Positions 1-56,886 are shown, counted from the first letter of the stretch. The stretch: 64,000 bases of DNA from Deltaproteobacteria bacterium (GCA_017992605.1 JAGOOG010000006.1:55276-119275), one strand, 5' to 3'. Numbers and translations: made by a program. The notes: generated from the letters alone by a model not told the origin.

Positions 1-228
1 GGAATGTAAGTCTGCAGCATCGCCCGCGTTCCCGGAAAGGCTGTGCTGTATGGCGTTCACCAGTTCCTGTTCCCTCGGTTCCGGCGGACGTGTCTGACAC
101 TCCTTCTCGCTTCTTGACGCCCTGGCCCGTCGTCTGTTAAGTCATCTCTACCTCGTAAGGACCGTACTGCTCACGTGCGGGATATCCATTCAGGGGCGCG
201 GGAAGACATGACCAGGAAAACCGGATCG

Positions 229-1041
229 ATGAAGGTGCAGTTCACCAAGATGGAGGGCACCGGGAACGACTTCATCATGGTGAACGCCGTTCCCGGATCC
301 CTGGATATGGACTGGCCGTCCTTTGCTGCACGCTTCTGTCCCGTGAAGACAGGCATAGGGGCCGACGGGGTCATCGTGCTCTCCCCTGATACGCTCACGG
401 ACTTCCGCTTCCGCATCTTCAACGCCGATGGCAGCGAGGCCGAGATGTGCGGCAACGGCGCCCGCTGCGCCGCCCTGTTTGCATACCGGCAGGGTATCGC
501 AGGAAAGGCCCTGCGGTTCAGCACCATGGCCGGTATCGTCGAGGCCAGGGTTCACAACGACGGCGCCGCCGTCCAGATGACCGTGCCATTCGGGCTGGAC
601 ACGGGGATCGTCATTCCCGTCCACGGGTCCGAAAGGACCGTGCACTTCGTCAACACCGGCGTGCCGCACACCATCGTCTTCACCGACCACGTCGATGAGG
701 AGCCCGTGTTCGAACACGGGCGTCTCATCCGTTATCACGATCGTTTCGCTCCTTCGGGGACCAACGTGGATTTCGTGGAAAAGGTAGGCAGCGGCTGCAT
801 CCGTGTCCGCACCTACGAGCGGGGTGTCGAGGGGGAGACCCTTGCCTGCGGCACCGGGGCCGTGGCATCGGCCATCGTATCGTACCACCTCGGCACGGTC
901 AGGGACCTCCCGGTTACGGTCCGCATGAGGGGTGGTGACCTGAAGATAGACTTCACCCCGGATGGTGGCGCCTACGCCGATGTCTGGCTCACGGGCCCGG
1001 TCACCACGGTCTTCACGGGCGAGGCCATGGTGAGCCTGTGA
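229..1041 (+). CDS. dapF: diaminopimelate epimerase
   Basis: Translation MKVQFTKMEGTGNDFIMV... matches the DapF N-terminal GNDF motif and has both catalytic Cys regions. The start was moved to the internal ATG at 229. Confidence 0.9.
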   Translation: MKVQFTKMEGTGNDFIMVNAVPGSLDMDWPSFAARFCPVKTGIGADGVIVLSPDTLTDFRFRIFNADGSEAEMCGNGARCAALFAYRQGIAGKALRFSTMAGIVEARVHNDGAAVQMTVPFGLDTGIVIPVHGSERTVHFVNTGVPHTIVFTDHVDEEPVFEHGRLIRYHDRFAPSGTNVDFVEKVGSGCIRVRTYERGVEGETLACGTGAVASAIVSYHLGTVRDLPVTVRMRGGDLKIDFTPDGGAYADVWLTGPVTTVFTGEAMVSL

Positions 1042-1086: not shown

Positions 1087-2625
1087 ATGCGTGAACTCGT
1101 AGCCGTGCTTGACTTCGGTTCTCAGTACGCCCAGCTCATCTCCCGGCGCATCCGCGAGTGCGGGGTCTACTGCGAGATTCTCCCCCACGATACCACGGCC
1201 GCTGACCTGGACGGCCTGGGCCCCAAGGCCATCGTCCTGTCCGGAGGCCCGGCATCGGTCCTCGAAAAAGGCCATCCCGGCATCGAGGAAGGCGTTTTCG
1301 ACCTCGGCATACCCGTGCTCGGTATCTGCTACGGCCTGCAGCTCACCGCCAAGGTGCTCGGCGGCAGTCTCGAGCGAGGCCGTGCCAGGGAGTACGGCCC
1401 GGCGACCATCGATGTGGACGATCGGGGCAAGCTCTTCGTGGGCCTGCCGGACATGCTCGATGTCTGGATGAGCCACGGCGATCACGTCTCAATTCCCCCG
1501 GCCGGGTTCACGGTCCTGGCCCGCACGCCCACCTGCGGGGTGGCGGCCATGGGCAATGCGTCCAGAAAGATCTACGGGGTCCAGTTCCACCCCGAGGTGG
1601 TCCACACCCCCAGGGGGAAAGACATCCTCGGGAACTTCCTCTTCGGCATTGCAGGCTGCAGCGGCGGCTGGACCATGAAGGGCTTCATCGAGGAGTCCAT
1701 AGGGGCGATCAGGAACAAGGTGGGAACCGGCAGGGTGATCTGCGGCATGTCGGGCGGCGTGGACTCTGCCGTGGTGTCGGCCCTCATCGACAGGGCCATC
1801 GGTGACCGCATGACCGCCATCTTCGTGGACAACGGGGTTCTGCGGGCCGGCGAGGCCGAACAGATCAGGAAAACCTTCACCGAGACATATCCCCTGAATC
1901 TCGACATCGTCGATGCGTCCGACCGGTTCATCGATGCGCTGGTGGGCGTCACCGAGCCCGAGGAGAAGCGCAAGATCATCGGCCGCACCTTCATCGACGT
2001 GTTCTACGGCGAGGCAGCACGCATCGGCGGTGCCGATTTCCTGGCCCAGGGAACGCTCTACCCGGATGTCATCGAAAGCCGATCCGCCAAGGGCGGCCCG
2101 TCTGCGACCATCAAGAGCCACCACAACGTGGGTGGTCTGCCTCAGGACCTGAAGTTCAAGCTCGTCGAGCCACTCAAGGAGCTTTTCAAGGACGAAGTGC
2201 GCATGCTGGGCAGGGAACTCGGCATGCCGGAATCAATCCTGACGCGCCAGCCATTCCCTGGGCCCGGTCTTGCCGTGCGCATCCTGGGCGAGGTTACCAG
2301 GGAGAACGTGTCCATCCTCCAGGAGGCCGACCGGCGGGTGCAGGAGGAGATCGTCAGGTGGGAGGGATACCGTGACGTCTGGCAGTCCTTTGCCGTGCTG
2401 CTGCCGGTCAAGACCGTCGGGGTCATGGGAGACGAGCGGACCTATGCCAATGTCATCGCCATCCGTGCCGTGAACAGCATGGACGGGATGACGGCTGACT
2501 GGATCAAGATGCCCTACGAACTGCTGGCGAGGATCTCCACGCGTATCATCAACGAGGTCAAGGGTGTGAACCGTGTGGTCTACGACATCAGTTCCAAGCC
2601 CCCGAGCACCATCGAGTGGGAGTGA
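1087..2625 (+). CDS. guaA: GMP synthase (glutamine-hydrolysing)
   Basis: Class I GATase N-terminus ([17 protein letters not shown]) plus a PP-loop SGGVDS and the C-terminal GMP synthase dimerisation region, 512 aa. Confidence 0.95.
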
Positions 2626-2794
2626 GAAAAATACCGTGACGGGAGGTATCCGGCCTGCTCAATCCATGCATCCCGCACCACGGCATACCTGCCGCGAGCT
2701 CTGCGGGATGTGCGCATTGAGCGGGTCCGGTTCTCTCTCGAGCATCACGACCATGTACCAGACAGCACTATCATCGACCTGAGGAGGTGCCCCC

Positions 2795-4198
2795 ATGGGC
2801 GGACTGTTCGGCATAGCTTCCAGGCAGGACTGCGTGAAGGATCTCTTCTACGGCACCGACTACCACTCGCATCTCGGCACACGCCGCGCAGGGCTTGCCG
2901 TGGTGAACGAGAAAGGCTTCACGCGGTCCATTCACTCCATCGAGAGCTCCTACTTCCGCTCGAAATTCGAGCCTGACCTGACCATCTTCCAGGGGAACAT
3001 GGGCATCGGCGTCATCAGTGACACCGACTCCCAGCCGCTCATCATCAACTCCCACCTGGGCACCTTCGGCATCGTCACCGTGGGCAAGATCAATAATCTG
3101 GTCGAGCTCGGCAAGCTGGCCTTCTCCCAGAAGAAGTACTTCTCCGAGACATCGGGCTACGACATCAACCCCACCGAGCTCATCGCCATGCTCATCTGCG
3201 AGCAGGACAACTTCGTCAACGGCATCCGGCACGTCAACGAGTCCGTCAGGGGGTCGTGCACCATACTCCTCCTGACGCGGGATGGAATCTATGCCGCCCG
3301 GGACAGATACGGCAGGACACCCATCGTCATCGGCAGAAAGGACGGTGCCTTGGCCGCGTCATCCGAATCGAGCGCCTTCCCCAACCTCGGATACGAGACA
3401 GAGTACTACGTAGGTCCTGCCGAGATAGTGCACATCACCCCCGACGGGTATGAGCAGGTCAGCACCCCGGTCGAGAAGATGCAGGTGTGCTCGTTCCTGT
3501 GGGTATATTACGGCTACCCGCCTTCATGCTACGAGGGCATCAACGTGGAGGAGGTGCGGTACAGGTGCGGCAGGGCCCTGTCCAGGGACGATACGGTGGA
3601 GGTGGACTTCGTCTCGGGCATCCCGGATTCGGGCATCGGTCATGCGCTGGGCTATGCCACAGGCAAGGGCATCCCCTACATGCGACCATACGTCAAGTAC
3701 ACCCCCACGTGGCCACGGAGCTTCATGCCCCAGAATCAGTCCGTGCGCGACCTGGTGGCCAAGATGAAGCTGATCCCCAACCGTGCCATCATCAACGGCA
3801 GGCGCATCGTGTTCTGCGACGACTCCATCGTGCGGGGCACCCAGCTCCAGGACAACATCCAGATCCTCTATGAGTACGGGGCCAGGGAGGTGCACATGCG
3901 GGTGGCCTGCCCAACGCTCATCTACCCCTGCGAGTTCCTGAACTTCTCGAGCTCACGCTCCCAGCTCGACCTTGCCGGCAGAAAGGCCATCAAGGCACTG
4001 GAGGGGAAGGATGACGTCCACCTGGAGGAGTATGCCCGGGCGGGTTCAGAGAAGAACAGGGCCATGGTGGAACAGATCCGCAAAACCCTGGGCATGACCT
4101 CGCTGAAGTACCAGACCATCGACGATCTGGTGGAGGCCATCGGACTCCCGAAGGAGCGCCTGTGCACCCACTGCTGGGACGGGACGAGCTACTGCTGA
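2795..4198 (+). CDS. amidophosphoribosyltransferase (PurF)-like paralog with degenerate glutaminase domain
   Basis: PRTase motif IVFCDDSIVRGTQ and a C-terminal Cys cluster as in [4Fe-4S] PurF. The N-terminus reads MGGLFG (no Cys1) and the RYxTTG/HNGN glutaminase motifs are missing. GGAGG RBS 8 nt upstream; the in-frame codon triplet upstream is a stop. Confidence 0.75.
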   Translation: MGGLFGIASRQDCVKDLFYGTDYHSHLGTRRAGLAVVNEKGFTRSIHSIESSYFRSKFEPDLTIFQGNMGIGVISDTDSQPLIINSHLGTFGIVTVGKINNLVELGKLAFSQKKYFSETSGYDINPTELIAMLICEQDNFVNGIRHVNESVRGSCTILLLTRDGIYAARDRYGRTPIVIGRKDGALAASSESSAFPNLGYETEYYVGPAEIVHITPDGYEQVSTPVEKMQVCSFLWVYYGYPPSCYEGINVEEVRYRCGRALSRDDTVEVDFVSGIPDSGIGHALGYATGKGIPYMRPYVKYTPTWPRSFMPQNQSVRDLVAKMKLIPNRAIINGRRIVFCDDSIVRGTQLQDNIQILYEYGAREVHMRVACPTLIYPCEFLNFSSSRSQLDLAGRKAIKALEGKDDVHLEEYARAGSEKNRAMVEQIRKTLGMTSLKYQTIDDLVEAIGLPKERLCTHCWDGTSYC

Positions 4199-4217: not shown

Positions 4218-7200
4218 CTAGGGCCGTTCACCCAGCAGCGTTGCGAGCACCCGGACCTCGTACCCCGATGCATCGACCACATGTCTGAGCTCGGCGGCCG
4301 CATCCGATGCCTCGCGCAGGGCCCTCTTCATCGCCCCTGCGGTCTTCTTCCCTGCCAGACGGCGCAGGGCCGTACAGAGGGCGAGCCACGAGATCAGGGT
4401 ATCCATGGACTCCTTGTTGAACCACCACCTGTCGCCGAAGAGATTGAACCCCAGGAAGTCCCTCACGGTGGAATCCACGAGCATGTCCCTCAGCAGAATA
4501 CCCATGTCGCGCATGGTCGATACACCCTGATGCCTGGCGAGGATGCCTATGAGCGTGACTTCGTACCGGGCCCTGGACTCGTCCGCGCCGAGCTCGACAA
4601 AGGTCCTGGTTACGGCATGCCCGAGCATCCAGTCGTCCATGAGCGAAGCGGAACGTGCCGCGGCACCCTCGTCGCCGGCGAGCCTGCCGAGCGGCGCCAC
4701 GATCGCCCAGAGCAGGGGGATCCGCCATGCCCACAGATCGGACGACGGCGTTTCCGGAATCAGGCAGAGCAGGTCACCGATGTGTTCATCCCCCTCCCAG
4801 GACGGCTTGTGCCGGTGCCTGTTCACGGTGAAGAGGGCGTCCAGGAGCAGGCACGTCTCGTCGCCCGCGACCTTGTCCCGGGCAGGCCAGCCCGCGAACT
4901 CCCGTGCATTCTTCAGGAATGAGGACAGCCTCCCGCTGAAGACCGCAGGGGTCGTTCCCGTGCGCATCCCCCCGGACACGAGCACGGGCAGGGCATCCCC
5001 CGCGATCATCTCGCCGAAGGGCCTGAGCACCTTTTCCACGGAGAGTTCACGGAGCGCGGTCGTCACATCGGGCACGCCCCTGCCCATGAGCCGCTGTTCA
5101 AGCTCGGCACACCTCCCGTCAAAATCGTGGATCTCGCCGAACGAAGAGAAGACGTGGCACTTGAAGGCGCCCAGGCGGATCGCGAGTCCGTCGCGCCAGA
5201 TGCCCCGGCTGCTCCTGAGGTATTCGAGGCCTCCACGCTCGTCTCGCAGGACGTAGTAGGCGGCATCTTCGTTCTTCAGCGCGAGACCCTCTCCCAGAGA
5301 TTTGTGAACGATATGACGTCTGGTGCCCTGCTCCACGTTCATGCCCACGGACCTGGAGATGGTACCGACTGCCTCTGAGAACCTGTTGTTGTAGACCACC
5401 AGGGACCTCTCGTCCCCGTACCTGTTGGAATAGGCAAACACGTCCTCGTTCACGTGGCCTTCAGGGGTGCGGAAGTCGTAGAGCACGAAGTGTTCCACCC
5501 CGGAGAACATCCTGCGCTTCTTGAACAGCGGGAAGATCTCCTGCTCGTGGCGCCACACGAGGTGACTGTCTACCGGTTCGTCCCAGTAGGATCGCCGGTA
5601 CTCCATGCCGTATTTTTCCGAGAAGCCCTCGACCTGTCCGTGACCGAACATGGGAAGCCCCGGCAGGGTGGCCATGAGCGTGGCAACCCCGAAATACTTG
5701 TCGTCCTTGCCGAAACCGTGCACCGCAGGTTCCTCGTCGGGGTTGTTCATGAAGTTCACGAAGCGCCTGAGGATCTCGGGATTGAAGCGGAGCACGTTCT
5801 TCATGACATCCCGGTACTTGCTGTTCTCCTCGGCCTTGAGCATGTTCATGAAGGCCGAGTTGTACACCCGGTGCATACCCAGGCTCCGAACGAAGTACCC
5901 CTCCATGAGCCAGAAGGCCTCGGCCAGGAGGAGCGTGTTGGGTGCTTCGGCTGCGATGCGGTCCACGAGCTCGCGCCAGAACTCCACCGGAAAGAGCCGC
6001 TCGAAATCGTCGGGGGACACGCTGTGGCCTGCCCTCGACGGGATGTCGCCGCCGTAGCCGGGCGCCGGATACCAGAGGCGCTGGAAGTGTCGCTTGGCAA
6101 GGGTCATGGCCGCATCGAAGCGTATGATGGGGAACCTCTTCGCAATGGCGATGGTCTGGCCGATCACGGCCTGGCGAACCTCGTGCTTGAGAAAGTCGAG
6201 CTGCGCCGTGTCGTTCCAGGGCATGCTCGTCCCGTCGTTCCCGTGGTAGATGTAGCGGTCCTGGCCGGTCCACCGGTCATGCCTGCGGAAGACCACGGCC
6301 GCGTCGGTGCGGTTCCAGTACCCGTCCTCGATCTGGATGACCACCCGGTCGTCCTGCGAGAGATTTGTTCCGGTGAACCGGTATGCCGGGAACGGCGGGT
6401 GATCTAGCTGGATGAACCAGTCCGGGTGCTCGATGACCCAGCGTGAGTAGATGCCCATGTGGTTGGGCACCATGTCCGTGGCCATGCGTATGCCGTAGCG
6501 CAGGGCCCGGTCCTTGAGGTTCTCGAAGGCATCATCGCCCCCGAGCTCGGATGCGATGATGTAGTCGTAGAGGGAATAGGCTGAGGATTCGGCCTCGGGG
6601 TTGCCGGTCATCCTCTTGATCGTCTTCGAGGCCGGGCTGCGCTCCCATATGCCGATGAGCCAGAGACCCGTGAAACCCCAGCGGGACAGGATCTCGAGCT
6701 CCTCGTCCGGTATCCGGTCGAGGCGGCTGATGTCGCGGTTGTACTTCACCGAGAGCTGGTGAAGCCATACGTACACGCTCTTGGCCATGAGCACGAGGCT
6801 GGGCATCCAGTCCTCGTCGGGGCTGAACCGCTCGATGTCCTCGTAATCCCTCAGGCCGAACGTGATCACGGGCGCGTACCCCTTGCCGATGAACCGTGCC
6901 CTGGTTTCCTCCTTGATGAGGTCGAGGCTGCTCAGGAGCCTTATGTAGAGTTCGGCCAGGAGATAGCCCCAGTGCTTGCGGATGTACTCGAGCTGTTCGA
7001 AGAGGGAATGCGGCGCGGCCCGCAGAGGCGCCAGGAGCAGGTCGAGGAGCGTCTGGCCGAAGGGCCCGAAGGGTGTTATGCTCCTGAAGAGTTCGTCGAT
7101 GAACGAGATGATGTCGAGGTACGGCGTTTCCTTCCTGAGCGCGGTGTCGTCGAAGAGTTCGTGGTAGTTCGACAGTGCTCTGTTCTCGTTGGAGATGTAG

Positions 7201-7643
7201 AGCAGCAGCATCTCCTCCATGGCGATGAGCCTGTTTGACACCCCACCGGTGCGGGAGGCCACGTATTCCTGCACCGTCATGTTGCCCGTGTACACGTCCC
7301 GCGGCGGGAACTGGTGGAGGAACTGCTCGATGGTGCGGTCCACGTCAGGGAGCCTTGTCGATGCGTAGTCGTAGGCGTCCCTCATGATATTGGGGTTCAC
7401 CTGCCTTCGGTAGAGCTCGATCATAAAGTGCATGATCTCGTCGATGAGCCCCATGGCGTTGATGTCGGATGCCCGCGCAGCCCTTTCCGGATGGCTGGCT
7501 GCATCGCGGATGCGGTTCATCCTGTCCGCGAAGTCCCGGGCAGCCTGGGGACTGGCCAGGATGACATTGCCCGTGGTGGTGAACAGGGCCTGGTCGAAGC
7601 TGTAGAGGTCTCTCGCCTTGCGGGAGATATGAAATTCGTACAT
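4218..7643 (-). CDS. alpha-amylase family (GH13-like) large multidomain glycosidase/glycosyltransferase
   Basis: Central region carries GH13 signatures: GIRMATDMVPNH (region I), IIRFDAAMTL (region II catalytic Asp), LLLAEAFW (region III Glu), FVNFMNNPDE (region IV-like). About 270 aa N-terminal and about 440 aa C-terminal extensions have no family I recognise. Confidence 0.65.
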   Translation of the reverse strand: MYEFHISRKARDLYSFDQALFTTTGNVILASPQAARDFADRMNRIRDAASHPERAARASDINAMGLIDEIMHFMIELYRRQVNPNIMRDAYDYASTRLPDVDRTIEQFLHQFPPRDVYTGNMTVQEYVASRTGGVSNRLIAMEEMLLLYISNENRALSNYHELFDDTALRKETPYLDIISFIDELFRSITPFGPFGQTLLDLLLAPLRAAPHSLFEQLEYIRKHWGYLLAELYIRLLSSLDLIKEETRARFIGKGYAPVITFGLRDYEDIERFSPDEDWMPSLVLMAKSVYVWLHQLSVKYNRDISRLDRIPDEELEILSRWGFTGLWLIGIWERSPASKTIKRMTGNPEAESSAYSLYDYIIASELGGDDAFENLKDRALRYGIRMATDMVPNHMGIYSRWVIEHPDWFIQLDHPPFPAYRFTGTNLSQDDRVVIQIEDGYWNRTDAAVVFRRHDRWTGQDRYIYHGNDGTSMPWNDTAQLDFLKHEVRQAVIGQTIAIAKRFPIIRFDAAMTLAKRHFQRLWYPAPGYGGDIPSRAGHSVSPDDFERLFPVEFWRELVDRIAAEAPNTLLLAEAFWLMEGYFVRSLGMHRVYNSAFMNMLKAEENSKYRDVMKNVLRFNPEILRRFVNFMNNPDEEPAVHGFGKDDKYFGVATLMATLPGLPMFGHGQVEGFSEKYGMEYRRSYWDEPVDSHLVWRHEQEIFPLFKKRRMFSGVEHFVLYDFRTPEGHVNEDVFAYSNRYGDERSLVVYNNRFSEAVGTISRSVGMNVEQGTRRHIVHKSLGEGLALKNEDAAYYVLRDERGGLEYLRSSRGIWRDGLAIRLGAFKCHVFSSFGEIHDFDGRCAELEQRLMGRGVPDVTTALRELSVEKVLRPFGEMIAGDALPVLVSGGMRTGTTPAVFSGRLSSFLKNAREFAGWPARDKVAGDETCLLLDALFTVNRHRHKPSWEGDEHIGDLLCLIPETPSSDLWAWRIPLLWAIVAPLGRLAGDEGAAARSASLMDDWMLGHAVTRTFVELGADESRARYEVTLIGILARHQGVSTMRDMGILLRDMLVDSTVRDFLGFNLFGDRWWFNKESMDTLISWLALCTALRRLAGKKTAGAMKRALREASDAAAELRHVVDASGYEVRVLATLLGERP

Positions 7644-7793: not shown

Positions 7794-8936
7794 CTATTCA
7801 ATCCTTTCGAGGGCGTCCCTGATTTCCTGCCGGACCTTGTCCGCGTCCGGTGACACGTGGCACCTCCGGTGGCAGTTGGGACACAGGGCCACGGTGTTCT
7901 CGACGGTGTCCGGCCCGCCTTCAGCGAGGGGCAAGACATGGTGCGTCTCCAGATACCATGATCCCCGCACGTCCCGGAAAGGACCCGGTTTCCGACACAG
8001 CTCGCAGATCCCCCGTGCCTGCTGCAACACCCAGGCTCTGACCAGGGGGTCCTTCTCATACTCCGACCGCGTGGACTGCAGTCTGTTCGGGTGAGGATAT
8101 CCCTTCGGCGCGCCGGCGAGTTTCTTGCCGAGCAGATTGCCCGTCCTCCTGTCCAGTTCGAACGGGTCCGCAGTCGAGGTATAGTCCCGCCCGTTGAGGA
8201 ACTTCCTCCCGAAGATGATCCTCCTGATCCTCTCCGATGTCTCCGGGCTGATGTTTGTCCTTGGTGGATAGGCCTGTACGGTCGGGTGACACAGCTCCTG
8301 GAGCACCGAAGAGATGTTCTGCAGCCTGAACTCGACGGACCCCCTGCTCCTGTTGATGAGCTCGAAGCTGAGAAACTGCCTGATGACCTCGGCCCTGTTG
8401 AACTTCTTCCCCTTGAGCTCCCTGTTCAGCATGGTGAAGTACGCATAGACAGCGGCCTCGAGTTCCTGGTCCGCCCAGTCGGTGAAGTCCGGATCGACGT
8501 CTTCATGGCAGGCTGCCGATTCGATCAGGTCGACCCGGTACACATCCTTCCCGATTCGTTCGAACCTCATCACCGGCCGCTCCTCGTCGAACTCCTCGTT
8601 CAAGGCATATTTTCTGTATACGTACGGAAACCGGTCTATGATCTGCTCAGAGAAGTCGGTCTTCCAGAGAAGCCGGTAGCGGGACCCCATCTGATCCATG
8701 TGAATGTGGGCGTCATAGGCGACAGAACCGAGCACAAGCTGGACAGGCATCGGTTCAGAAAGGCCTTTCGCAGGCAGGCCAAAGAAGGAGACGATCTCTC
8801 TGGGGACGCTCATCTCCCGGTGCAGGAACGTGGACCTGTCCATGTGCTTCAGGGCGACATCTTCGGATAAGACATCCCAGGAGTAGGCAGAAGACGGATA
8901 GTTCATGTCGTGTCCATTTCTGTCGGATTGCTCCAT
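7794..8936 (-). CDS. McrA/COG3183-like HNH endonuclease fusion (unassigned N-terminal domain + C-terminal HNH)
   Basis: C-terminus LETHHVLPLAEGGPDTVENTVALCPNCHRRCH is a canonical HNH ββα-Me zinc-finger motif. The N-terminal ~300 aa match no family I recognise. Flanking intergenic DNA is AT-richer than the window. Confidence 0.7.
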   Translation of the reverse strand: MEQSDRNGHDMNYPSSAYSWDVLSEDVALKHMDRSTFLHREMSVPREIVSFFGLPAKGLSEPMPVQLVLGSVAYDAHIHMDQMGSRYRLLWKTDFSEQIIDRFPYVYRKYALNEEFDEERPVMRFERIGKDVYRVDLIESAACHEDVDPDFTDWADQELEAAVYAYFTMLNRELKGKKFNRAEVIRQFLSFELINRSRGSVEFRLQNISSVLQELCHPTVQAYPPRTNISPETSERIRRIIFGRKFLNGRDYTSTADPFELDRRTGNLLGKKLAGAPKGYPHPNRLQSTRSEYEKDPLVRAWVLQQARGICELCRKPGPFRDVRGSWYLETHHVLPLAEGGPDTVENTVALCPNCHRRCHVSPDADKVRQEIRDALERIE

Positions 8937-23090: not shown

Positions 23091-24443
23091 TCAGGAAATG
23101 ATTTTCAGGGCGGACGACACATCCGGCAGCGCCCTGACTTCAGCGCCGTCGGCCCGTGAAAGGGAATCGCGGTTTGCCTCGGGGATGATGATACGGGTAA
23201 ACCCCATCTTGAGGGCCTCCCGTACACGCGACTCCATGTGGCTCACCGGCCTGAGTTCCCCGGACAACCCTATTTCGCCTATGAAGACCATACCCCTGGG
23301 CACTGGCCTGTCGAAGGCGCTTGAAACGATGGCCATGACCAGGGAAAGGTCAACCGCTGGTTCGGTGACCCTGAAACCGCCGGCGATGTTCACCACGATG
23401 TCGGACTGTGCGAGGTAGACGCCCGCCCTCTTCTCCATGACGGCGAGGAGCACCGCGAGACGAGAGGGGTCGGACCCCATGGTGATCCTCCTCGGCATAC
23501 TGTAGGTCGTCCTGCTCACCAGGGCCTGGACCTCCACGACGAAGGCCCTGCTTCCTTCGCAGGTCGCCATGACTGCACTGCCGGGAGACTCGCCGCCGAG
23601 GCCGTGGATGAAGATGGCCGAAGGGTCCTTCACCTCGTGGAGCCCGGTCTGTTTCATCTCGAAGACCCCGATCTCGCCGGACGTTCCGAAACGGTTCTTG
23701 GATGTCCTCACGATCCGATACGCCCCGGTGTCATCCCCCTCGAATGACAGCACCGTGTCCACCATATGTTCAAGCATCTTGGGCCCTGCTACAAGCCCTT
23801 CCTTGGTGACGTGCCCGACGATGAACACGGTCACGCCCCTCGCCTTGGCGATCTCCATAAGGACTCCCGCACAGTGGCGTATCTGTGACACGCTCCCCGG
23901 CGGGGCGCCCACAGACTCGGAATACACCGACTGGATGGAATCGATGATGGCCAGGTCGTATACCCCTCCGTCTACCTCCTCGCGGATGCTCTCCATGAGG
24001 ACCTCGGGGAATACCACGATGCCGCTTGCAGCGAGGCCCAGCCTCTGAGCGCGCAGCCTGATCTGCGGGGCCGATTCCTCGCCGCTCACGTAGAGCACCT
24101 TGAGTCCCGACGAATCAAGGCTGTGCGCCATCTGGAGCATGAGGGTCGACTTTCCGATCCCCGGGTCGCCGCCGATGAGCACGAAGGACCCCTGCACCAC
24201 CCCACCCCCGAGCACCCGGTCGAGCTCACCGATGAGGCTGGTTCTCCTCACGGTCATGTCCGCCGTGATCTCGTTGAGCACCATGGGTTTCACCCTGCTG
24301 CTGCGGGACGGGGAAGGTCTTTCTTCGACGATCACGTCTTCCTCGAGGGTATTCCAGAGGCCGCACTGGTTGCACCTGCCCATCCACTGGTAATGGAGAA
24401 ACCCGCACGAGCTGCAGCGGAAGACCTTCCTCGGCCTGGCCAT
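23091..24443 (-). CDS. radA: DNA repair protein RadA/Sms
   Basis: N-terminal C4 zinc finger (CSSCGF...CNQCGLW), RecA-like Walker A GDPGIGKST, KNRFG motif and a C-terminal Lon-like domain. Confidence 0.95.
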   Translation of the reverse strand: MARPRKVFRCSSCGFLHYQWMGRCNQCGLWNTLEEDVIVEERPSPSRSSRVKPMVLNEITADMTVRRTSLIGELDRVLGGGVVQGSFVLIGGDPGIGKSTLMLQMAHSLDSSGLKVLYVSGEESAPQIRLRAQRLGLAASGIVVFPEVLMESIREEVDGGVYDLAIIDSIQSVYSESVGAPPGSVSQIRHCAGVLMEIAKARGVTVFIVGHVTKEGLVAGPKMLEHMVDTVLSFEGDDTGAYRIVRTSKNRFGTSGEIGVFEMKQTGLHEVKDPSAIFIHGLGGESPGSAVMATCEGSRAFVVEVQALVSRTTYSMPRRITMGSDPSRLAVLLAVMEKRAGVYLAQSDIVVNIAGGFRVTEPAVDLSLVMAIVSSAFDRPVPRGMVFIGEIGLSGELRPVSHMESRVREALKMGFTRIIIPEANRDSLSRADGAEVRALPDVSSALKIIS

Positions 24444-26140
24444 TACTGCTGGGTCACCCTCAGGACTTCCTCGATGGTGGTGACCCCGTCCTCCACCTTG
24501 CGGGCGCCGTCTTCCCTCAGAGTATGGAGACCTTCCTCGATGGCCTGTTTCTTGATGATGTTCGAGTCGGAGGTCTTGAGGATGGTGGTCTTGATGGCAT
24601 CGCTCATGAGAAGAATCTCATAGATGCCGGTCCTTCCCTTGTACCCGGTGTTGATGCACTCCTTGCATCCTGCCCCGCGCCAGAGATACCCCTCCCTGCC
24701 GAGCATGTCCTGGGACAGCCCGACCTCCAGGAGACTCTCGCTCTCGGGGAAATACTGCTGTCTGCAGTTCGGGCAAATCTTGCGCGTCAACCTCTGGGCG
24801 ACAATGGCGTTCACGGACGAGGTGACCAGGAACGGCTCGATCCCCATGTCGATGAGCCTTGTCACGGCGCTGGCGGAGTCGTTGGTGTGCAGGGTGGAAA
24901 AGACCAGGTGGCCGGTGAGTGCGGCCTGGATCGCGATCTCCGCGGTCTCCAGGTCACGGATTTCGCCCACCAGGATCACGTCCGGGTCCTGGCGCACAAT
25001 GGAGCGCAGCCCCGACGCAAAGGTGAGCCCGACCTTCGCGTTGACCGGTATCTGCCCGATGCCCTTGAGCTGGTATTCAATGGGATCCTCGATGGTCAGT
25101 ATGTTTTTGTCCGGCGAGTTGATCCTGCTCAGCATGGAGTAGAGCGACGTGGTCTTGCCGGATCCCGTTGGCCCTGTCACGAGGATGATGCCGTGTTCCT
25201 GCCTGGTGAGACGCTCGATGATGGCGAGGTCGTCGGGGTAGAATCCGAGCTCTTCGAGACCAAGCAGCACCGACGACTTGTCGAGGATCCTCATGACCAC
25301 CCGCTCGCCGTTCACCGTGGGCACCGTGGAGATTCTCAGGTCCACCGAGTGGTCGCCGAGCTTGATTCCGATCCTGCCGTCCTGGGGGAGGCGCTTCTCC
25401 GCGATGTTCAGGGTGGCCATGACCTTGATGCGCGAGACCACCGCAGGGTGGAGTCGTTTGGGAAGGCTCAACACGTCATGGAGGATGCCATCCACCCGGA
25501 ACCTTATCTTCACATCGCTCTGGTAGGGTTCCACGTGGATGTCCGAGGCCTTCTCCCGGAATGCCTGGACCATGAGCCGGTTGACCAGGCGGATGATGGG
25601 TGCCTCGGTCTCCATGGCCGTGATGTCCTGGATGCTCTCCAGGTCTTTGAGGATCTCGTCTTCTTCTTCCTCGATGTCCCCCATGATGTCCTTGGCGCTC
25701 TCGTCCTTCATCTCGACCAGGCGGTTGATGGCGGCCAGGATCTCCTGCTTCGGGGCGAGGACTCGCCTTATGTCCTTGAGGTGCAGCGTCCGGGAGATGT
25801 CGTAGAACGCCTCCTGCTCAACGGGATCGTGGACCGCCACGATCATGACATCGCCCTGCTGTTTGACCGGGACCATGGAGTATTTCCTGAGATAACTGAC
25901 CGGCAGCTTGTCCAGGACGGCCGGGTCGACCTCAAGGTCGCCGATCGTCTGCAGGACAGGGAGATCCCACTGCCTGCCGAGGGCTATCGCCATATCGTGA
26001 TCGCCAACCATGCCGGCCGACACCAGCGTCTCCCTCAGGGGAACACCCCGCTCCACGCTGATCTCCCTGGCCCGTTCCAGGGAGGAGGAGTCCACGGCCT
26101 GCATTTCGAGCAGGACCTGTTCGAGGTCTGTCCTTCTCAT
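24443..26140 (-). CDS. gspE: type II secretion / type IV pilus assembly ATPase GspE/PilB family
   Basis: N-terminal T2SSE_N domain, Walker [10 protein letters not shown], and the tetracysteine motif CPNC...CKEC, 565 aa. Confidence 0.9.
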   Translation of the reverse strand: MRRTDLEQVLLEMQAVDSSSLERAREISVERGVPLRETLVSAGMVGDHDMAIALGRQWDLPVLQTIGDLEVDPAVLDKLPVSYLRKYSMVPVKQQGDVMIVAVHDPVEQEAFYDISRTLHLKDIRRVLAPKQEILAAINRLVEMKDESAKDIMGDIEEEEDEILKDLESIQDITAMETEAPIIRLVNRLMVQAFREKASDIHVEPYQSDVKIRFRVDGILHDVLSLPKRLHPAVVSRIKVMATLNIAEKRLPQDGRIGIKLGDHSVDLRISTVPTVNGERVVMRILDKSSVLLGLEELGFYPDDLAIIERLTRQEHGIILVTGPTGSGKTTSLYSMLSRINSPDKNILTIEDPIEYQLKGIGQIPVNAKVGLTFASGLRSIVRQDPDVILVGEIRDLETAEIAIQAALTGHLVFSTLHTNDSASAVTRLIDMGIEPFLVTSSVNAIVAQRLTRKICPNCRQQYFPESESLLEVGLSQDMLGREGYLWRGAGCKECINTGYKGRTGIYEILLMSDAIKTTILKTSDSNIIKKQAIEEGLHTLREDGARKVEDGVTTIEEVLRVTQQ

Positions 26141-28455
26141 TCGGGTTGTGCCTTCCCGGGGGTGGTCATGTTCCGCAGCATCTTGTCCGCTTCACCCGAT
26201 TTCTCCTTGAAGAGCGCCTGGGTCTTCTCCTCCGTGTCGATGATCATGGGGGTGAGGAAGATGTAGAGATTGGTCTTTTCCCTGCTCCTTCCATAGGACT
26301 TGAACAGCCATCCGATGAGCGGGATATCGCCGAGAAGCGGCACCCGGTAGTCGCTCAGGGTCAGGGTATCGCCGATGAGGCCGCCGATGACCATGGTTGA
26401 TCCGTCCTTGATGTTCACCGTGGTGGAGGCGGACCGTTTCAGGGTGGAGGGTGCGTACTCGTCTCCCGTACTGCCCGGGACCAGGGTGGTGATTTCCTGG
26501 AAGAGATCCATCCTGATATTGCCCTGCTGGTTGATCTGCGGGGTGAGCTTGAGGGTGACGCCGACGTCGCGGTAGTCATAGGTGCGCACGGTCCTGTCGA
26601 TGTTCGTCGAATCCGTGTCCTCCCGGGTGACATAGGGGATGTTGGCGCCGACCTTGATCTCGGCCTCCTTGTTGTCCATGGTGAGGATCTGGGGTGTGGA
26701 GATTATGTTCACGTCCGAGTCCTGTGCCATGGCATTGATGAAGGACGACATGTTCGGGAAGGTGAGCTTGGTGCTGCCGCTCGTGACGGTAATGGCTTCG
26801 CCGATCACCCCGACGAGGGGACCGCTGGGCAGATCGCTCGGGCTGGCAATGAAGTTCTGGCCGGTCCTGCCGATGACCGCACCGATCCTCTCGCCGCTGT
26901 CATACTTGAAGTCTTCCGCAAAGGTCCACTCTACCCCCACCTTGAAGTCCTTGGTGGTATTGACCTCCATGATGGCGGCCCTGACATAGACCTGCTTGCG
27001 AGGGATATCGAGGAATTTTATGGTATCGATGATGTTCTTGTACTGGTAGGGGTCTGCATAGATGATCAGGGAGTTGGTCTCCTTGTCAGGGCTGATCTTT
27101 ATGTTCTGTTCCTTCAGGGCCGGGTTCACGACCGTCCTTGCCCGTGTCTGGGCGGCAGCGGTCTGCCCGGCGGCAGGGGCGGCAGCGGCCTGAGCCTGGG
27201 CATCGGGGCTCTCCGGGGTGGGAATCTCGGTCAGGACCTTCGCCAAATCCTCGGCGTTGGCGTACTGGAGGTAGTAGACATGGATGTCCTCTTTGCCGCT
27301 GGGGGTGGGTATGTCGAGCTTTTTTATAAGTCCCTCGATACCGGCGAGATCCTGGGGCGGCGCCATGACGATAATGGCATTGGTCCGCTCGTAGGGGATG
27401 ATCTTGGTGACGGTCTTGGTGCCGACGCTCTCGGGCTGACGGACGTTTCTCAAGCGCTGCAGCTGCTCCTGCCTCTCCTCGGTCATGATCTCACCGAGCT
27501 TCGCTGCCAGGTCAGTGGCGGAGGCATAGGTCAACGGAATGATCTTGACCTCCTGGGCAAACCCTGCCACATCGATGACCTTGAGGATGTCCATGATCTT
27601 CTTGATATTGGACTTGCTGTCGGTGACGATGAGGACATTGCTCTGGGGATAGGACAGGAGCTGGGAAGAGGCCTTGGACATGAGCGGGCTCAGGAGGTTC
27701 CGCATGTCGTTGGCATCGGAGTATCTGAGCTGGATGATCTGGGTGATCATGGTGTCGTCCCTGATCATGGGTGCTTCCGTCGTTGTCTCCAGGCTCTTGG
27801 TGATGGCATCGGCTGCCTTCACTATCTTGGTGACACCCCCCATATCCACCGTCCCGAAACCGTTCACCTCGAGAACGCTGAGGAAAACCCTGTATGCCTC
27901 GTCCATGGTCATCTTCCGGGGAGAGATGACCGTTATCTTGCCGGAGACCTTCTCATCGATGATGAAGTTCTTTCCCGTTATGTCGGCTATGAACTTGATG
28001 AACACCTTGATGTCCACCCCATCGAAGTCCATGGTGATGAACTGTCCGCTTTCGTCCACCTCCATCTTGGGCGGGGACTGCGTCGCCGTCTGATTCCCTG
28101 ACTTCACCGAGGGGGCTGGCGACGGCGACGACGCCCCCTGTTGCCCTGCGTTGACGTCATCTCCAGAGGGCTCTCCGGGGCCACTGTTCGTCGGGGTTCT
28201 CACGTTCGGATTGTTGCCAAAGTATTGCATCTGTTCCTGTTGTTTCCTGAACTCTCTGAGGGGTATCACCTTCTCCTTCTGGGTGGTGCCGGGCTGCTGA
28301 GGGGTCGTTGCCTGCTGTCTTGCAGGGGTGGTCTGCGTGCCCTGTTTCTTCACCGGCAGCGGGGCCTCATCCTGGATCAGCCGGGCTCCCCAGGTACCGG
28401 AAACACACAGAAGCACGATCAGAACAGCTCCCCCCATAACCCTGCGAATATCCAT
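26137..28455 (-). CDS. gspD: secretin (GspD/PilQ family outer-membrane channel)
   Basis: Signal peptide, N0/N1-like repeats, and the C-terminal secretin domain (VIGGLIGDT...VPLLGDIPLIGWLF). Ala/Gln/Thr-rich linkers. Confidence 0.9.
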   Translation of the reverse strand: MDIRRVMGGAVLIVLLCVSGTWGARLIQDEAPLPVKKQGTQTTPARQQATTPQQPGTTQKEKVIPLREFRKQQEQMQYFGNNPNVRTPTNSGPGEPSGDDVNAGQQGASSPSPAPSVKSGNQTATQSPPKMEVDESGQFITMDFDGVDIKVFIKFIADITGKNFIIDEKVSGKITVISPRKMTMDEAYRVFLSVLEVNGFGTVDMGGVTKIVKAADAITKSLETTTEAPMIRDDTMITQIIQLRYSDANDMRNLLSPLMSKASSQLLSYPQSNVLIVTDSKSNIKKIMDILKVIDVAGFAQEVKIIPLTYASATDLAAKLGEIMTEERQEQLQRLRNVRQPESVGTKTVTKIIPYERTNAIIVMAPPQDLAGIEGLIKKLDIPTPSGKEDIHVYYLQYANAEDLAKVLTEIPTPESPDAQAQAAAAPAAGQTAAAQTRARTVVNPALKEQNIKISPDKETNSLIIYADPYQYKNIIDTIKFLDIPRKQVYVRAAIMEVNTTKDFKVGVEWTFAEDFKYDSGERIGAVIGRTGQNFIASPSDLPSGPLVGVIGEAITVTSGSTKLTFPNMSSFINAMAQDSDVNIISTPQILTMDNKEAEIKVGANIPYVTREDTDSTNIDRTVRTYDYRDVGVTLKLTPQINQQGNIRMDLFQEITTLVPGSTGDEYAPSTLKRSASTTVNIKDGSTMVIGGLIGDTLTLSDYRVPLLGDIPLIGWLFKSYGRSREKTNLYIFLTPMIIDTEEKTQALFKEKSGEADKMLRNMTTPGKAQPE

Positions 28456-28474
28456 GATTCCCCCTTGATTCCGC

Positions 28475-29197
28475 TTATTCTTTCGGGTGCACTATGCTCT
28501 CGAAGTCCCTGTCTCCCCTGAGGGAGACCAGATCCGGATCCCTGCTGGCCCACAGCCTCACCTCGGGCTGCATCTCTGCGGCCTGACGCAGAGACGAAAG
28601 CGCGGCGTCCTTCTTCTTCAGCTTCGCATAGGCACAGGCCATGTTGTAAAGGGGCTCCACATAGTCCGCCGAGTTCCTTCTCGCCTGGACGAAGTAGTTC
28701 AGTGCCTCTGCAGCATTATCCTTTGCTAATAACACACTCCCCATATTATTCAATAACCTGGCGTCATCCGGCCTGAGTTTCTGGGCCTTGGCCATGGCGG
28801 CAAATGCCTCGTCGAAGCGCCCGGCGCCGTAGAAGAGCTCCCCCAGCTGGAGGTGGGCTTCCGCATAATCGGGCGTCTCCTTGATCACCTCCTGGTAGGC
28901 CGCAACGGCTCCCTCCAGGTCGTTCTTCCTGCGCAGCCGATCTCCCTTGTTCATGAGCTCCAGGGTGCGGACCGGCCCCGGCGTGACAGGCTGAGCGGCA
29001 ACCGTCTCGACGGACCGCTCTCCCCTTTCGGGTGCCATCCAGAAGATAGCGGCGGCGGTGAGCGCGGAACTGATCAGAACGGCTGCCGCGACGATCCAGT
29101 AGATCCTTCGTCCCCTGACGATATACGGCGTATTGGAACGAGACTGCTCGGGGCTGCTCGCCTGTGATCTCTTAAGGGCCTCGTAGATGGAACTCAT
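28475..29197 (-). CDS. TPR-repeat protein with N-terminal membrane anchor
   Basis: A hydrophobic segment, then tetratricopeptide repeats (AEAHLQLGELFYGAGRFDEAFAAMAKA...). Lies between the exeA-like and secretin genes. Confidence 0.7.
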   Translation of the reverse strand: MSSIYEALKRSQASSPEQSRSNTPYIVRGRRIYWIVAAAVLISSALTAAAIFWMAPERGERSVETVAAQPVTPGPVRTLELMNKGDRLRRKNDLEGAVAAYQEVIKETPDYAEAHLQLGELFYGAGRFDEAFAAMAKAQKLRPDDARLLNNMGSVLLAKDNAAEALNYFVQARRNSADYVEPLYNMACAYAKLKKKDAALSSLRQAAEMQPEVRLWASRDPDLVSLRGDRDFESIVHPKE

Positions 29198-30744
29198 GGC
29201 AGGCGCTCCCGTATGTTCTGCACGAGAACCATGGTTTCAGGTCCCACGATACCGTCCCGTCTCAACCCGAAGACCTCCTGGAACATCTCCACTCCCTGCG
29301 ATGTTTCGATGCCGTAAACCCCGTCGGGTTCGATAGTCAGGAGATCAAGGCGGGACAGGACATTCTGGATATCCATCACCCTGTCTCCGGTCATGTTGAG
29401 GGTGTAGACGGTCTCATGCAAGGCCTTCGCATAAGGTATCATGACGTTCCACCGGTAGAGCTCCTCGAATTCATCCAGAGGGATCTCGATGACGGCCCGG
29501 TCCCCTCCCACTACCTGGACGAATGTCGCATCAGCCTTGAGCATGACCATGTATCCGCCGTCCATGGACACGACGGCCGGCATGGGCAGGTATTTCAAAT
29601 AGGCCGGCCGGGGATGGAGATTCATGGCATCAGGCCCCGCGATACCCTCGGGCAGCCGGGCCATGATCTCCAGGGCTGTATTGTAGTCACGGATGCTCCA
29701 CCCCCTGATATCATGCCTCCGTGTCTCCTGGGCCTGCCGATCCTGGTCCGGAGTCCCCTGTGGCACGACGGCAGACTGATCGAGAGAAGCGGCCATCTGC
29801 CGGTCCCTGGCTATCCCCTTGGACCCTATCAGGTCGATGAGGTTCCCGGGCAGACCGGGCCGGATCATGAGCGCGGCCAGGACGGCAAGCACGCCCACGA
29901 CGGCCGAGACGAAGGCAGGGCTCACCCTCCTGCGCGTGTAATTGCCCTCGAGCTCACGTATGGCGCCCATCACGATGCGGGCGCCTATTCTCCTGGTCGA
30001 ACGCAGGTAGGCAATGAGCAGAGATCGCTCGGCCACGGCATTGATCCTCCTCGGTACGCCCCGGGAGTACCGGTAGACGAATCTCAGCGCCAGGGGGGAG
30101 AAGGAGATGTCACCATGGGCCCCCGATATGATAAGCCGGTGGTTGATGTAACTCTTCGTATCCCAGAGGTTCAGCGGCCAGATGTGGTACCTCAGAACGA
30201 TCCGGTCGTCGATCTGTTTCATGGCCGGCGATGAAAGAAGCTTGACCAGCTCGGGCTGGCCCACGAGCACAATCTGAAGGAGCTTTTCCTTTTCCGTTTC
30301 CAGGTTCGAAAGCATCCGGATCTGCTCCAGTACGTCCGGCGAGAGGTTCTGGCACTCGTCGATGATGAGCACGGCGTTCTCGCCGTTCACAAAGGCGCGG
30401 ATGAGAAACTCATAGAGTTCATCGAGCAGAGCCTTCTTGGATGCGGTCGACGCATTGATGCCGAAGTCCTGGTTGATGGCCTGCAGCAGCTCGATGTCGG
30501 AAAGGGCCGGATTCAGTATGAGGGCCGTTCTGACAGTCTTGGGCAGAGTTGCCAGCAAGGCCCTGCAGATGGTCGTCTTGCCCGCCCCCACCTCGCCGGT
30601 TATCATGATGAAACCCTTGCGCTGCTCGATGCCGTACCGCAGGTATGACAGGGCCTCGTCGTGGGCCTTGGAGAGGAACAGGAATTTCGGGTCGGGCGTG
30701 ACGTTGAAGGGGTTTTCTGATAGTCCGAAGAACTGCTCAAACAT
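29194..30744 (-). CDS. ExeA/GspA-family AAA+ ATPase with C-terminal peptidoglycan-binding domain
   Basis: N-terminus FGLSENPF...ITGEVGAGKTT is typical of ExeA/GspA. The C-terminal GIETSQGVEMFQEVFGLRRDGIVGPET resembles a PG_binding_1 domain. Confidence 0.85.
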   Translation of the reverse strand: MFEQFFGLSENPFNVTPDPKFLFLSKAHDEALSYLRYGIEQRKGFIMITGEVGAGKTTICRALLATLPKTVRTALILNPALSDIELLQAINQDFGINASTASKKALLDELYEFLIRAFVNGENAVLIIDECQNLSPDVLEQIRMLSNLETEKEKLLQIVLVGQPELVKLLSSPAMKQIDDRIVLRYHIWPLNLWDTKSYINHRLIISGAHGDISFSPLALRFVYRYSRGVPRRINAVAERSLLIAYLRSTRRIGARIVMGAIRELEGNYTRRRVSPAFVSAVVGVLAVLAALMIRPGLPGNLIDLIGSKGIARDRQMAASLDQSAVVPQGTPDQDRQAQETRRHDIRGWSIRDYNTALEIMARLPEGIAGPDAMNLHPRPAYLKYLPMPAVVSMDGGYMVMLKADATFVQVVGGDRAVIEIPLDEFEELYRWNVMIPYAKALHETVYTLNMTGDRVMDIQNVLSRLDLLTIEPDGVYGIETSQGVEMFQEVFGLRRDGIVGPETMVLVQNIRERLP

Positions 30745-30767
30745 GCTCGGTCGCCCCCGGTTCCTGC

Positions 30768-31604
30768 CTACCTGAGTGGTACGCTGATCGAAGTCGTCGT
30801 GCCCTGACGCTCGACCTCGAGCTGCACGGTGGAGCTGCTCTGCAGCTCCTGATACGCGCTCAGGGCATCCTGCGGTGTCCGGATGGGTACGCCATTGACT
30901 GATCTGATGATGTCTCCGGTGCGCATGCCGTACTCATGGATCTGAGATCCTTCGACGACGTCACTCACCCGGAAGCCGTAGGGTTGCCCCCCGCGATAGT
31001 AGGGTACCACCCGTGCATTCCCGATGAGCTGGTCCATGTTCCTCATGGCCGCCGGAACGCCCCCTGCCGCCGCAGTCCGGGGACGCCTGGGTTCCCTGAC
31101 ACCGGAAGTCCGGGACGCAACCGTCGTTGTCGAGGGAGTCTCCTCCACCACGAGCATCTGCTGCTGGCCGTTCACTTCCATGATCACCTTGTTCCTGAAT
31201 ATGGCGATGAGGGTGGCTTCCTTGACGTTCTCTCCGATGCGGAAAAGCTTCTGCTCACCCGCCTCTTCGATGATCGCACGTGCGATCTCGCTGGGACCCG
31301 TGATGGTTCCCCGGAGCGTGATTCCCATCTGGGCCAGAGGTCTTTCCACGTCACCCGAGAGGCGCTGATCACCGGCCGGCCGGGCCTTGTTCACCTTGAG
31401 AAGGTCACGGCTCGCGATGACAGCGTACTCGCTCTTGCTCCTGGGCTGCCTGTCCTTGTTGATCGCGGTAATCTCGACCGTTCTCACCGGTCCTGGCGGC
31501 TCGTAGAGTATGTGACCGATGACCCCGGTGACGATCCCGGCAATCACCCAGATGAACAGGGTTATCATCGCGATGACCGCGATCAGTTTATAGCGTCTGT
31601 CCAT
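30768..31604 (-). CDS. gspC: GspC-like type II secretion protein (TM + PDZ domain)
   Basis: N-terminal TM helix, central region, C-terminal PDZ-like domain (YGFRVSDVVEGSQIHEYGMRTGDIIRSVNGVPI). Confidence 0.7.
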   Translation of the reverse strand: MDRRYKLIAVIAMITLFIWVIAGIVTGVIGHILYEPPGPVRTVEITAINKDRQPRSKSEYAVIASRDLLKVNKARPAGDQRLSGDVERPLAQMGITLRGTITGPSEIARAIIEEAGEQKLFRIGENVKEATLIAIFRNKVIMEVNGQQQMLVVEETPSTTTVASRTSGVREPRRPRTAAAGGVPAAMRNMDQLIGNARVVPYYRGGQPYGFRVSDVVEGSQIHEYGMRTGDIIRSVNGVPIRTPQDALSAYQELQSSSTVQLEVERQGTTTSISVPLR

Positions 31605-31611
31605 CTCCCCC

Positions 31612-33627: not shown

Positions 33628-33647
33628 CGGACCCTTCACACTCCCTA

Positions 33648-56715: not shown

Positions 56716-56793
<78 letters not shown>

Positions 56794-56810
56794 TTACTTT
56801 CTTATCAGTA

Positions 56811-56886
56811 TGGTAGGCGGAACAGGGATTGAACCTGTGACCTTCGGCTTGTAAGGCCGACGCTCTCCCGACTGAGCTACCCGCCC
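56811..56886 (-). tRNA. tRNA-Val (anticodon UAC)
   Basis: Reverse complement GGGCGGGTAGCTCAGTCGGGAGAGC...CUUACAA anticodon loop...GGTTCAATCC T-arm, CCA end. Confidence 0.9.

Follow-up and report, generated by a model that had tools for sequence, protein, structure and literature searches.

A cysteine-less PurF homologue, probably an ammonia-dependent phosphoribosylamine synthase, in a deltaproteobacterial contig and its relatives

The purF' gene and the scaffold of its product

Purine synthesis is committed and regulated at the step catalysed by amidophosphoribosyltransferase (PurF; EC 2.4.2.14), an enzyme both taught and annotated as a glutamine amidotransferase. The DNA analysed here is a 64,000-nucleotide stretch from a Deltaproteobacteria bacterium (GCA_017992605.1 JAGOOG010000006.1:55276-119275; the whole stretch is 'the window' below), which carries on its plus strand, at 2795..4198, the coding sequence of a PurF homologue without the N-terminal cysteine, a type referred to as PurF' (PurF-prime; gene, purF'). 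Translation of this open reading frame (ORF) gives a protein of 467 aa, followed by a stop codon, with the N-terminus MGGLFGIA. An AlphaFold2 (AF2) model, for which 20 family members were used as input, has a predicted local distance difference test (pLDDT) score of 91.6 and a predicted template modelling score (pTM) of 0.91. Foldseek places the model, over its full length, at template modelling (TM) scores of 0.83-0.85 to PurF of Bacillus subtilis (1ao0), Arabidopsis (6lbp) and Escherichia coli (1ecb), and these canonical enzymes are the nearest solved structures; alignment to those of B. subtilis and E. coli had been proposed in an earlier note on this DNA. Model and Foldseek matches alike give the architecture as an N-terminal nucleophile (Ntn) glutaminase fold followed by a C-terminal type I phosphoribosyltransferase (PRTase) fold.

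The start of the gene is well defined. A GGAGG ribosome-binding site (2783..2787, +) lies 7 nt before the ATG at 2795 and is conserved in the relative L013. As read from the sequence, an in-frame TGA stop (2780..2782, +) stands five codons upstream of the ATG, and not immediately upstream of it as the earlier note had it; the four codons that separate the two (GGA GGT GCC CCC) include no ATG, GTG or TTG, and a Cys-bearing N-terminal extension or propeptide is therefore impossible. An upstream start yielding a Cys N-terminus, which the earlier note had named as one of two findings that would overturn its reading, was looked for and is excluded in the window, and no upstream Cys propeptide was found in any of 80 related loci either (locus counts, here and below, rest on the best 80 of at least 598 species-level relatives in GTDB). 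In the alignment to B. subtilis PurF the Gly2 codon (2798..2800, +) occupies the position of the canonical Cys1 nucleophile. Apart from the placing of the stop codon, the earlier description of the N-terminus is borne out: the ORF with an MGGLFG start exists, the ribosome-binding site is at the right distance and there is no Cys1.

The PRTase half was described in the same note as well conserved, with a C-terminal Cys cluster, and its motifs and four cysteines are indeed intact. The PRPP/Mg-binding motif (PRPP being phosphoribosyl pyrophosphate), IVFCDDSIVRGTQ (aa 338-350; 3806..3844, +), contains DDSIVRGTQ at aa 342-350, and D343, S344, R347 and Q350 within it are invariant. The pyrophosphate (PPi)-binding loop of type I PRTases is found as G275-I-P-D-S-G280 (3617..3634, +), for which B. 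subtilis has VPDSS, and the PRTase flexible loop as K301...R308-S-F...K325 (3695..3769, +), which is conserved and corresponds to GRTF...K in canonical PurF; all three elements are invariant or nearly so in the family alignments. The [4Fe-4S] ligands of B. subtilis PurF we take to be Cys236, 382, 437 and 440, as in the literature on 1gph and 1ao0. Cys232 of the window protein (3488..3490, +) aligns with Cys236, the invariant Cys379 (3929..3931, +) aligns with Cys382, and the CxxC pair C457-T-H-C460 (4163..4174, +), placed by the Arabidopsis alignment and seen in CTHCWDGTSYC at the C-terminus, supplies the remaining two, such that all four ligand positions are matched by cysteines that are invariant or nearly so. 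The protein is thus predicted to be built on a [4Fe-4S] PurF scaffold like that of B. subtilis, and from these residues it has very probably retained the PRTase function of PurF. It also has a largely helical, family-specific insertion (aa 392-423; 3968..4063, +), recognised from a HMMER domain gap, from alignment columns 470-520 and from helices in the model. This insertion, of ~27-32 residues, is found neither in canonical PurF nor in Cys-bearing near relatives, and its consensus in the Cys-less family is ELAARRAI..EG......EYLDP.S.KY..MV.

The N-terminal domain across the family

The N-terminal Ntn-fold domain (aa 1-225; 2795..3469, +) is given by the AF2 model; it is glutaminase-dead by residue mapping, and the ratio of nonsynonymous to synonymous substitution (dN/dS, omega) places it under strong purifying selection. 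The only Pfam match is to GATase_7, at aa 74-195. Residue equivalences are those of the alignment to B. subtilis PurF 1ao0 (E 2.5e-46), canonical sites are given in E. coli numbering, and the roles of Arg26, Arg73, Tyr74, Asn101, Asp127 and the other residues are presumed to be those known from the literature on E. coli and B. subtilis PurF. The canonical HRGQ is replaced by HLGT, with Leu27 for Arg26; HNGN is replaced by TVGK, with Val96 for Asn101 and the glycine retained (Gly97); and SDTE is replaced by NPTE, with Pro126 for Asp127. The 'glutamine loop' RYxTxG has become ISDT, within GIGVISDTDSQP (aa 70-81; 3002..3037, +, from the alignment), a segment that is shortened by 8 residues relative to B. 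subtilis PurF, has lost Arg73/Tyr74 and carries the family-conserved S75 and D76. The same pattern of loss of glutamine-binding and oxyanion residues runs through 104 family members, in which just the glycines are retained. The absence of RYxTTG and HNGN reported in the earlier note is therefore accurate, save for the glycine of the latter, and so is its statement that the Ntn domain cannot hydrolyse glutamine, at least not in the way that is known, since neither the nucleophile nor any of the side chains that contact glutamine remains.

The domain has not decayed. Over the 104 Cys-less sequences, the motif D22-Y23-H24-S25-H26 (2858..2872, +), which stands for the L-x-x-Q-H of canonical LQHRGQ with Leu27 in place of Arg26, is conserved at D22 (97%), Y23 (98%), S25 (91%) and H26 (99%), and further near-invariant residues are C13 (92%), T29 (90%), H47 (93%), F54 (99%), S75 (98%), D76 (90%) and N125 (91%). 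Ten of these (C13, D22, Y23, S25, T29, H47, F54, S75, D76 and N125) are lacking in B. subtilis PurF, and by alignment most of the family-specific N-domain residues fall in segments that line the glutamine pocket of the canonical enzyme. Omega, taken from pairs at 78-95% identity, where the synonymous rate (dS) is estimable, spans ~0.02-0.13 in both the N-domain and the PRTase domain, and mean pairwise identity over 3321 pairs is 57.7% in the former and 61.6% in the latter, so that purifying selection on the N-domain is nearly as strong as on the PRTase domain. A decaying relic is ruled out by the dN/dS values and the family-specific conservation. By these patterns the former glutamine pocket is remodelled and maintained rather than merely broken.

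The MGG/MSG N-terminus is a trait of a large family and not a chance event or a sequencing error, because it is shared by virtually every close homologue and by the 80 species-level loci. A search of 5.8 billion proteins gave at least 8000 matches, the best 120 of which are all ~467 aa long and carry the name 'amidophosphoribosyltransferase'; nearly every one begins with MGG[LFIV]FG. Among the best 150 matches to representatives clustered at 50% identity, 54 are at least 430 aa in length; ~45 of these start MGG, MSG, MTG or MAG, and Cys together with HRG is found in just four, which are lower-scoring and three of which have it behind a clear propeptide. In the window and the best 80 loci, position 2 is Gly in 62, Ser in 18, Val in 1 and Cys in none. 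The species-level relatives, found by scanning a single genome for each GTDB species, fall in many phyla, and the best 80 loci come from Thermodesulfobacteriota, Bacteroidales (including Bacteroides, Prevotella, Parabacteroides, Muribaculaceae and Rikenellaceae), Eubacteriales, Planctomycetota, Verrucomicrobiota, Kiritimatiellae, Acidobacteriota, Gemmatimonadota, Anaerolineae, Spirochaetes and one Asgard archaeon.

Against TIGR01134, the NCBIfam purF equivalog with a curated cut-off of 350 bits, the window protein gives an end-to-end match of 200.7 bits. Cys-less members score 169-208 bits and the canonical PurFs that adjoin two of them 431 and 491 bits, so that the family is cleanly separated from canonical PurF on this model; by nucleophile, glutamine residues and score alike, the window protein lies outside the curated PurF equivalog. 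The nearest Cys-bearing relatives (P0188, P0226 and P0259) keep a propeptide-Cys and HRGQ, apparently without the equivalents of Arg73/Tyr74, Asn101 and Asp127, and the first of them has a borderline 342 bits on TIGR01134; they may be intermediate or differently wired glutaminases. Related Cys-less intermediates (P0238 and P0261) come from Woesearchaeota and Patescibacteria. Rare Cys-less PurF-like fusions were also seen, one with a C-terminal TIR domain (P0202, 665 aa) and one with TPR repeats (P0122, 556 aa), which could be real and hint at a role in conflict or signalling, or could be artefacts of assembly or gene calling.

Genomic context and probable function

The decisive clue to function is the pur-operon setting of members that are more distant. 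One of these, of gut Firmicute type (51% identity), lies in the order purE-purC-purF'-purM-purN-IMP cyclohydrolase-purH-purD-purL, and a second member (49% identity) is found in the same type of operon, again in the purF slot. A member at 42% identity belongs to a purF'-purD-purN / purM-purE-purC-purB-purQ-purL cluster, those of Muribaculaceae sit after purL, and other members adjoin purL, purD or purE/purC. No second PurF-like gene was found in the two Firmicute-like pur operons, in the 42%-identity cluster or at the Muribaculaceae loci. The earlier note had allowed that the true purF of the organism might itself be Cys-less and glutamine-dependent; for other lineages the findings extend to the first half of this only, in that a Cys-less gene is the sole purF of complete pur operons. 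A canonical purF adjoins the Cys-less gene in 2 of 96 related loci. In an Anaerolineae metagenome-assembled genome (MAG; L052:8559-11398) the two are in tandem, purQ-purC-purE-purF-purF', and the first purF is fully canonical (a propeptide, then CGISG, HRGQ, NRYSTTG, HNGN and SDSE; TIGR01134, 491 bits); in a Hermodarchaeota MAG (L076:10001-12936) they are convergent and 5 nt apart, and the canonical gene encodes a Cys behind a propeptide, HRGQ, RYxTTG and FNGT/TDTE (431 bits). The family thus shows replacement as well as co-occurrence; the Cys-less gene does not stand in for canonical purF in every genome, and it might serve a distinct or auxiliary function.

In the window, purF' lies directly downstream of guaA (1087..2625, +), which encodes a GMP synthase with GATase and GMP_synt_C domains and is itself preceded by dapF (175..1041). 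In this GuaA the class-I glutaminase motifs (GICYG, HPE) are intact; the host has not given up glutamine altogether. The earlier note was right that purF' is encoded right after guaA, but the functional weight of this position falls away: among the best 80 loci the adjacency is found in the two closest relatives only (L013 and L014), it is absent from the other 78 and from Desulforhabdus amnigena, and as a lineage-specific arrangement it was ruled out as a functional clue. The spacer between the genes (2626-2794) is 169 nt long, as against ~50-70 nt in those two relatives. No riboswitch or leader was detected in it by Rfam at the gathering or a permissive threshold, and no terminator-like site was seen in the spacer, including the extra ~100 nt. 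A tblastn search found no second purF and no other pur genes within the 64-kb window, so that the term 'paralog' used in the earlier note is unproven; the gene may be the organism's sole purF.

On its other side, a gene on the minus strand (4218-7643) converges on purF' and ends 19 nt from it; the 1141-aa product has only a weak match to alpha-amylase (PF00128), and the gene, which the four sibling contigs (L001-L004) all keep, may encode an unusual large glycoside hydrolase or an enzyme of glucan metabolism. Adjoining it is a gene (7794-8936, -) for a 380-aa protein that has an HNH nuclease domain at its C-terminus and whose N-terminal region is uncharacterised. Further along, 23091-33657 (-) holds a RadA/Sms-like gene, a type II secretion cluster (GspE ATPase, secretin, an AAA_22/PG-binding protein and a GspC-like PDZ protein) and an EF-G-like GTPase, and two tRNA genes lie at 56719-56886 (-); these are ordinary housekeeping context.

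Taken together, the evidence suggests that the window gene probably encodes an NH3-dependent phosphoribosylamine (PRA) synthase, that is, an amidophosphoribosyltransferase of the PurF' type. Of the possibilities raised in the earlier note (an NH3-dependent synthase, a different nitrogen donor or a regulatory role), this is the best supported and the others rank lower. The type I PRTase domain would bind PRPP, and ammonia would displace pyrophosphate to give 5-phosphoribosylamine, so that on the Fe-S PurF scaffold PRPP + NH3 would yield phosphoribosylamine + PPi without hydrolysis of glutamine. Since the N-domain is unable to release ammonia from glutamine, the nitrogen would most likely come from free cellular NH3/NH4+. 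The domain may have been kept for capping the PRTase site and for forming the oligomer and the ammonia path, and the remodelled pocket, in which the loop is shorter and conserved Asp, Tyr, His, Phe, Ser and Asn residues are new, may let in or trap ammonia and could hold an ammonium-binding or entry site. The precedent for NH3 dependence is E. coli PurF: with Cys1 replaced, the enzyme is described as having lost the use of glutamine and kept NH3-dependent activity (Mei and Zalkin 1989, as cited in PMC3261824).

Several observations weigh against this assignment. The sole purine-related neighbour in the window is guaA, whose adjacency is not conserved, and most of the 80 closest species loci are without a pur neighbour. 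A canonical purF stands beside the Cys-less gene in two genomes (L052 and L076). A simple 'dead domain' model would call for neither the insertion at aa 392-423 nor the strongly conserved residues peculiar to the N-domain of this family. Finally, no biochemical study of a Cys-less PurF was found in the full-text literature, the searched texts being not exhaustive.

The conservation of D22, Y23, H26, H47, F54, S75, D76 and N125 in pocket-lining segments, together with an omega that is equally low in the N-domain and the catalytic domain, could also be read as the mark of a PRA synthase that takes its nitrogen from elsewhere: an amide, a carbamoyl compound, or ammonia from a separate glutaminase protein. 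The carbamoyl-phosphate synthase large subunit gene, carB, which immediately adjoins the Cys-less purF in 6 of the 80 loci (L015 and L016 among them) and is the only recurrent neighbour in their 5-kb flanks, would fit such a donor. This reading is nevertheless unlikely, as clustering of the ORFs within 5 kb of the gene in the 80 loci gave no partner gene (a separate glutaminase, for instance) that is conserved among them, most members have Gly2 and hence no Ntn nucleophile (Ser2 occurs in only 18 of 81), and no invariant new Cys, Ser or Thr nucleophile was found. That the enzyme still acts as a glutamine amidotransferase, through an unconventional nucleophile or a processed N-terminus, is hardly credible. 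Ser, a possible Ntn nucleophile, does stand at position 2 in those 18 of 81 sequences, and some representatives start MSG or MTG; set against this are Gly2 in the window gene and most members, the replacement of the equivalents of Arg26, Arg73/Tyr74, Asn101 and Asp127, the lack of an upstream in-frame Cys propeptide here and in the 80 loci, and the inactivity with glutamine of E. coli PurF in which Cys1 is changed to Ser, as summarised in PMC3261824.

Catalysis itself might have been given up, leaving a pseudo-enzyme, non-catalytic or regulatory, that acts as partner subunit in mixed oligomers with a canonical PurF encoded elsewhere or senses purine nucleotides or PRPP. The canonical purF immediately beside the Cys-less gene in the Anaerolineae and Hermodarchaeota genomes, the joint presence of PurF and PurF' in Crenarchaeota (PMC3261824) and an N-domain that is conserved though catalytically dead would all agree with such a role, which is quite improbable all the same: a pure regulator would have no need of PRTase/PRPP motifs and four Fe-S ligands that are invariant or nearly so, and several pur operons have no purF at the locus other than the Cys-less gene. 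A phosphoribosyltransferase of a different reaction, outside the first purine step and misnamed by homology, would explain the score of 200.7 bits on TIGR01134 against a cut-off of 350, the family-specific insertion at aa 392-423 and the position of the window gene outside any pur cluster. This is very improbable, since members from unrelated lineages repeatedly occupy the purF slot of pur operons, and since among PRTases the fold and the active-site motifs match PurF alone.

Under the preferred reading, as an NH3-dependent PRA synthase, direct use of ammonia would save the ATP of glutamine synthesis and would suit ammonium-rich anoxic habitats (contigs with the gene derive from metagenomes of digester type and of the gut, and from MAGs), and where both genes occur they could plausibly be a high-ammonium/low-ammonium isozyme pair, by analogy with AsnA/AsnB. 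Much more tentatively, the family might be a distinct and ancient class of ammonia-specific PRA synthases, in which the pocket acts as a site of ammonium capture and deprotonation that feeds the channel, and which provides the main or only entry to purines in much of the anaerobic world and isozymes for high and low ammonium beside canonical PurF. The capture site of this speculative class would possibly be made up of D22, Y23, H26, H47, F54, S75, D76 and N125 with the shortened loop, and the anaerobes concerned might be gut Bacteroidales, many Clostridia, Desulfobacterota and Planctomycetota.

The variant is widespread, and annotations everywhere treat it as a usual glutamine amidotransferase. 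If it uses ammonia, annotations and metabolic models charge anaerobes with glutamine, and with its ATP, that they do not spend. Bacteroides and rumen bacteria reportedly rely on ammonia as a nitrogen source, and the proposed reaction would fit this reliance. The remodelled N-domain would then be a case study of an amidotransferase turned ammonia-dependent, gut anaerobes could be selectively targeted through the enzyme, and the PurF' hypothesis put forward for archaea in 2011 would become testable in tractable bacteria.

Comparison with known systems

The closest known structures are those of the [4Fe-4S] class, PurF of B. subtilis (1ao0, 1gph) and ASE2 of Arabidopsis (6lbp), with which the window protein shares the Ntn and type I PRTase folds, the PRPP motif, the PPi and flexible loops and the Cys positions. 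It differs from them in lacking Cys1 and the propeptide, in the replaced glutamine residues, in a loop that is 8 residues shorter, in the ~27-32-residue insertion on the C-terminal side, in RGTQ for RGTT and in an identity of 26-27%. Distant fold matches of the model found by Foldseek are beta-lactam synthetase and carbapenam synthetase (1jgt, 1mbz). These are homologues of asparagine synthetase B in which the Ntn domain has no Cys nucleophile and is inactive whilst the synthetase domain is active; their C-terminal catalytic domain and chemistry are different, and the likeness is one of analogy only.

The Cys1 mutants of E. coli PurF resemble the present family in the loss of glutamine use with NH3-dependent PRA synthesis left, as far as they are described in PMC3261824. 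They are, however, laboratory point mutants of an enzyme without an Fe-S cluster in which the glutamine site is otherwise intact, whereas here the whole pocket is remodelled and conserved.

The natural counterpart is the crenarchaeal PurF', a PurF homologue without the N-terminal Cys that is clustered with pur genes and was proposed, though never tested, as an NH3-dependent PRPP aminotransferase (Brown et al. 2011, Biol Direct 6:63, PMC3261824). This is the only relevant paper that was found, and none on a bacterial Cys-less PurF appeared in the full-text literature searched, where absence is not proof. Crenarchaeal PurF' is reported to carry Ala or Val in place of the Cys and to occur invariably together with a canonical PurF (PMC3261824). 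Both families consist of full-length Cys-less PurF homologues, and the tandem or adjacent purF and purF' of L052 and L076 recall the crenarchaeal arrangement. Clustering with pur genes, a trait of crenarchaeal PurF', is shared by several distant members of the present family, in the window is limited to guaA and is absent from most of the 80 closest loci. In a comparison made by description only, the present family differs in having Gly or Ser at the Cys position and in being mainly bacterial and spread over many phyla; it is also the only purF in some pur operons, and it has its own set of pocket residues and its own insertion.

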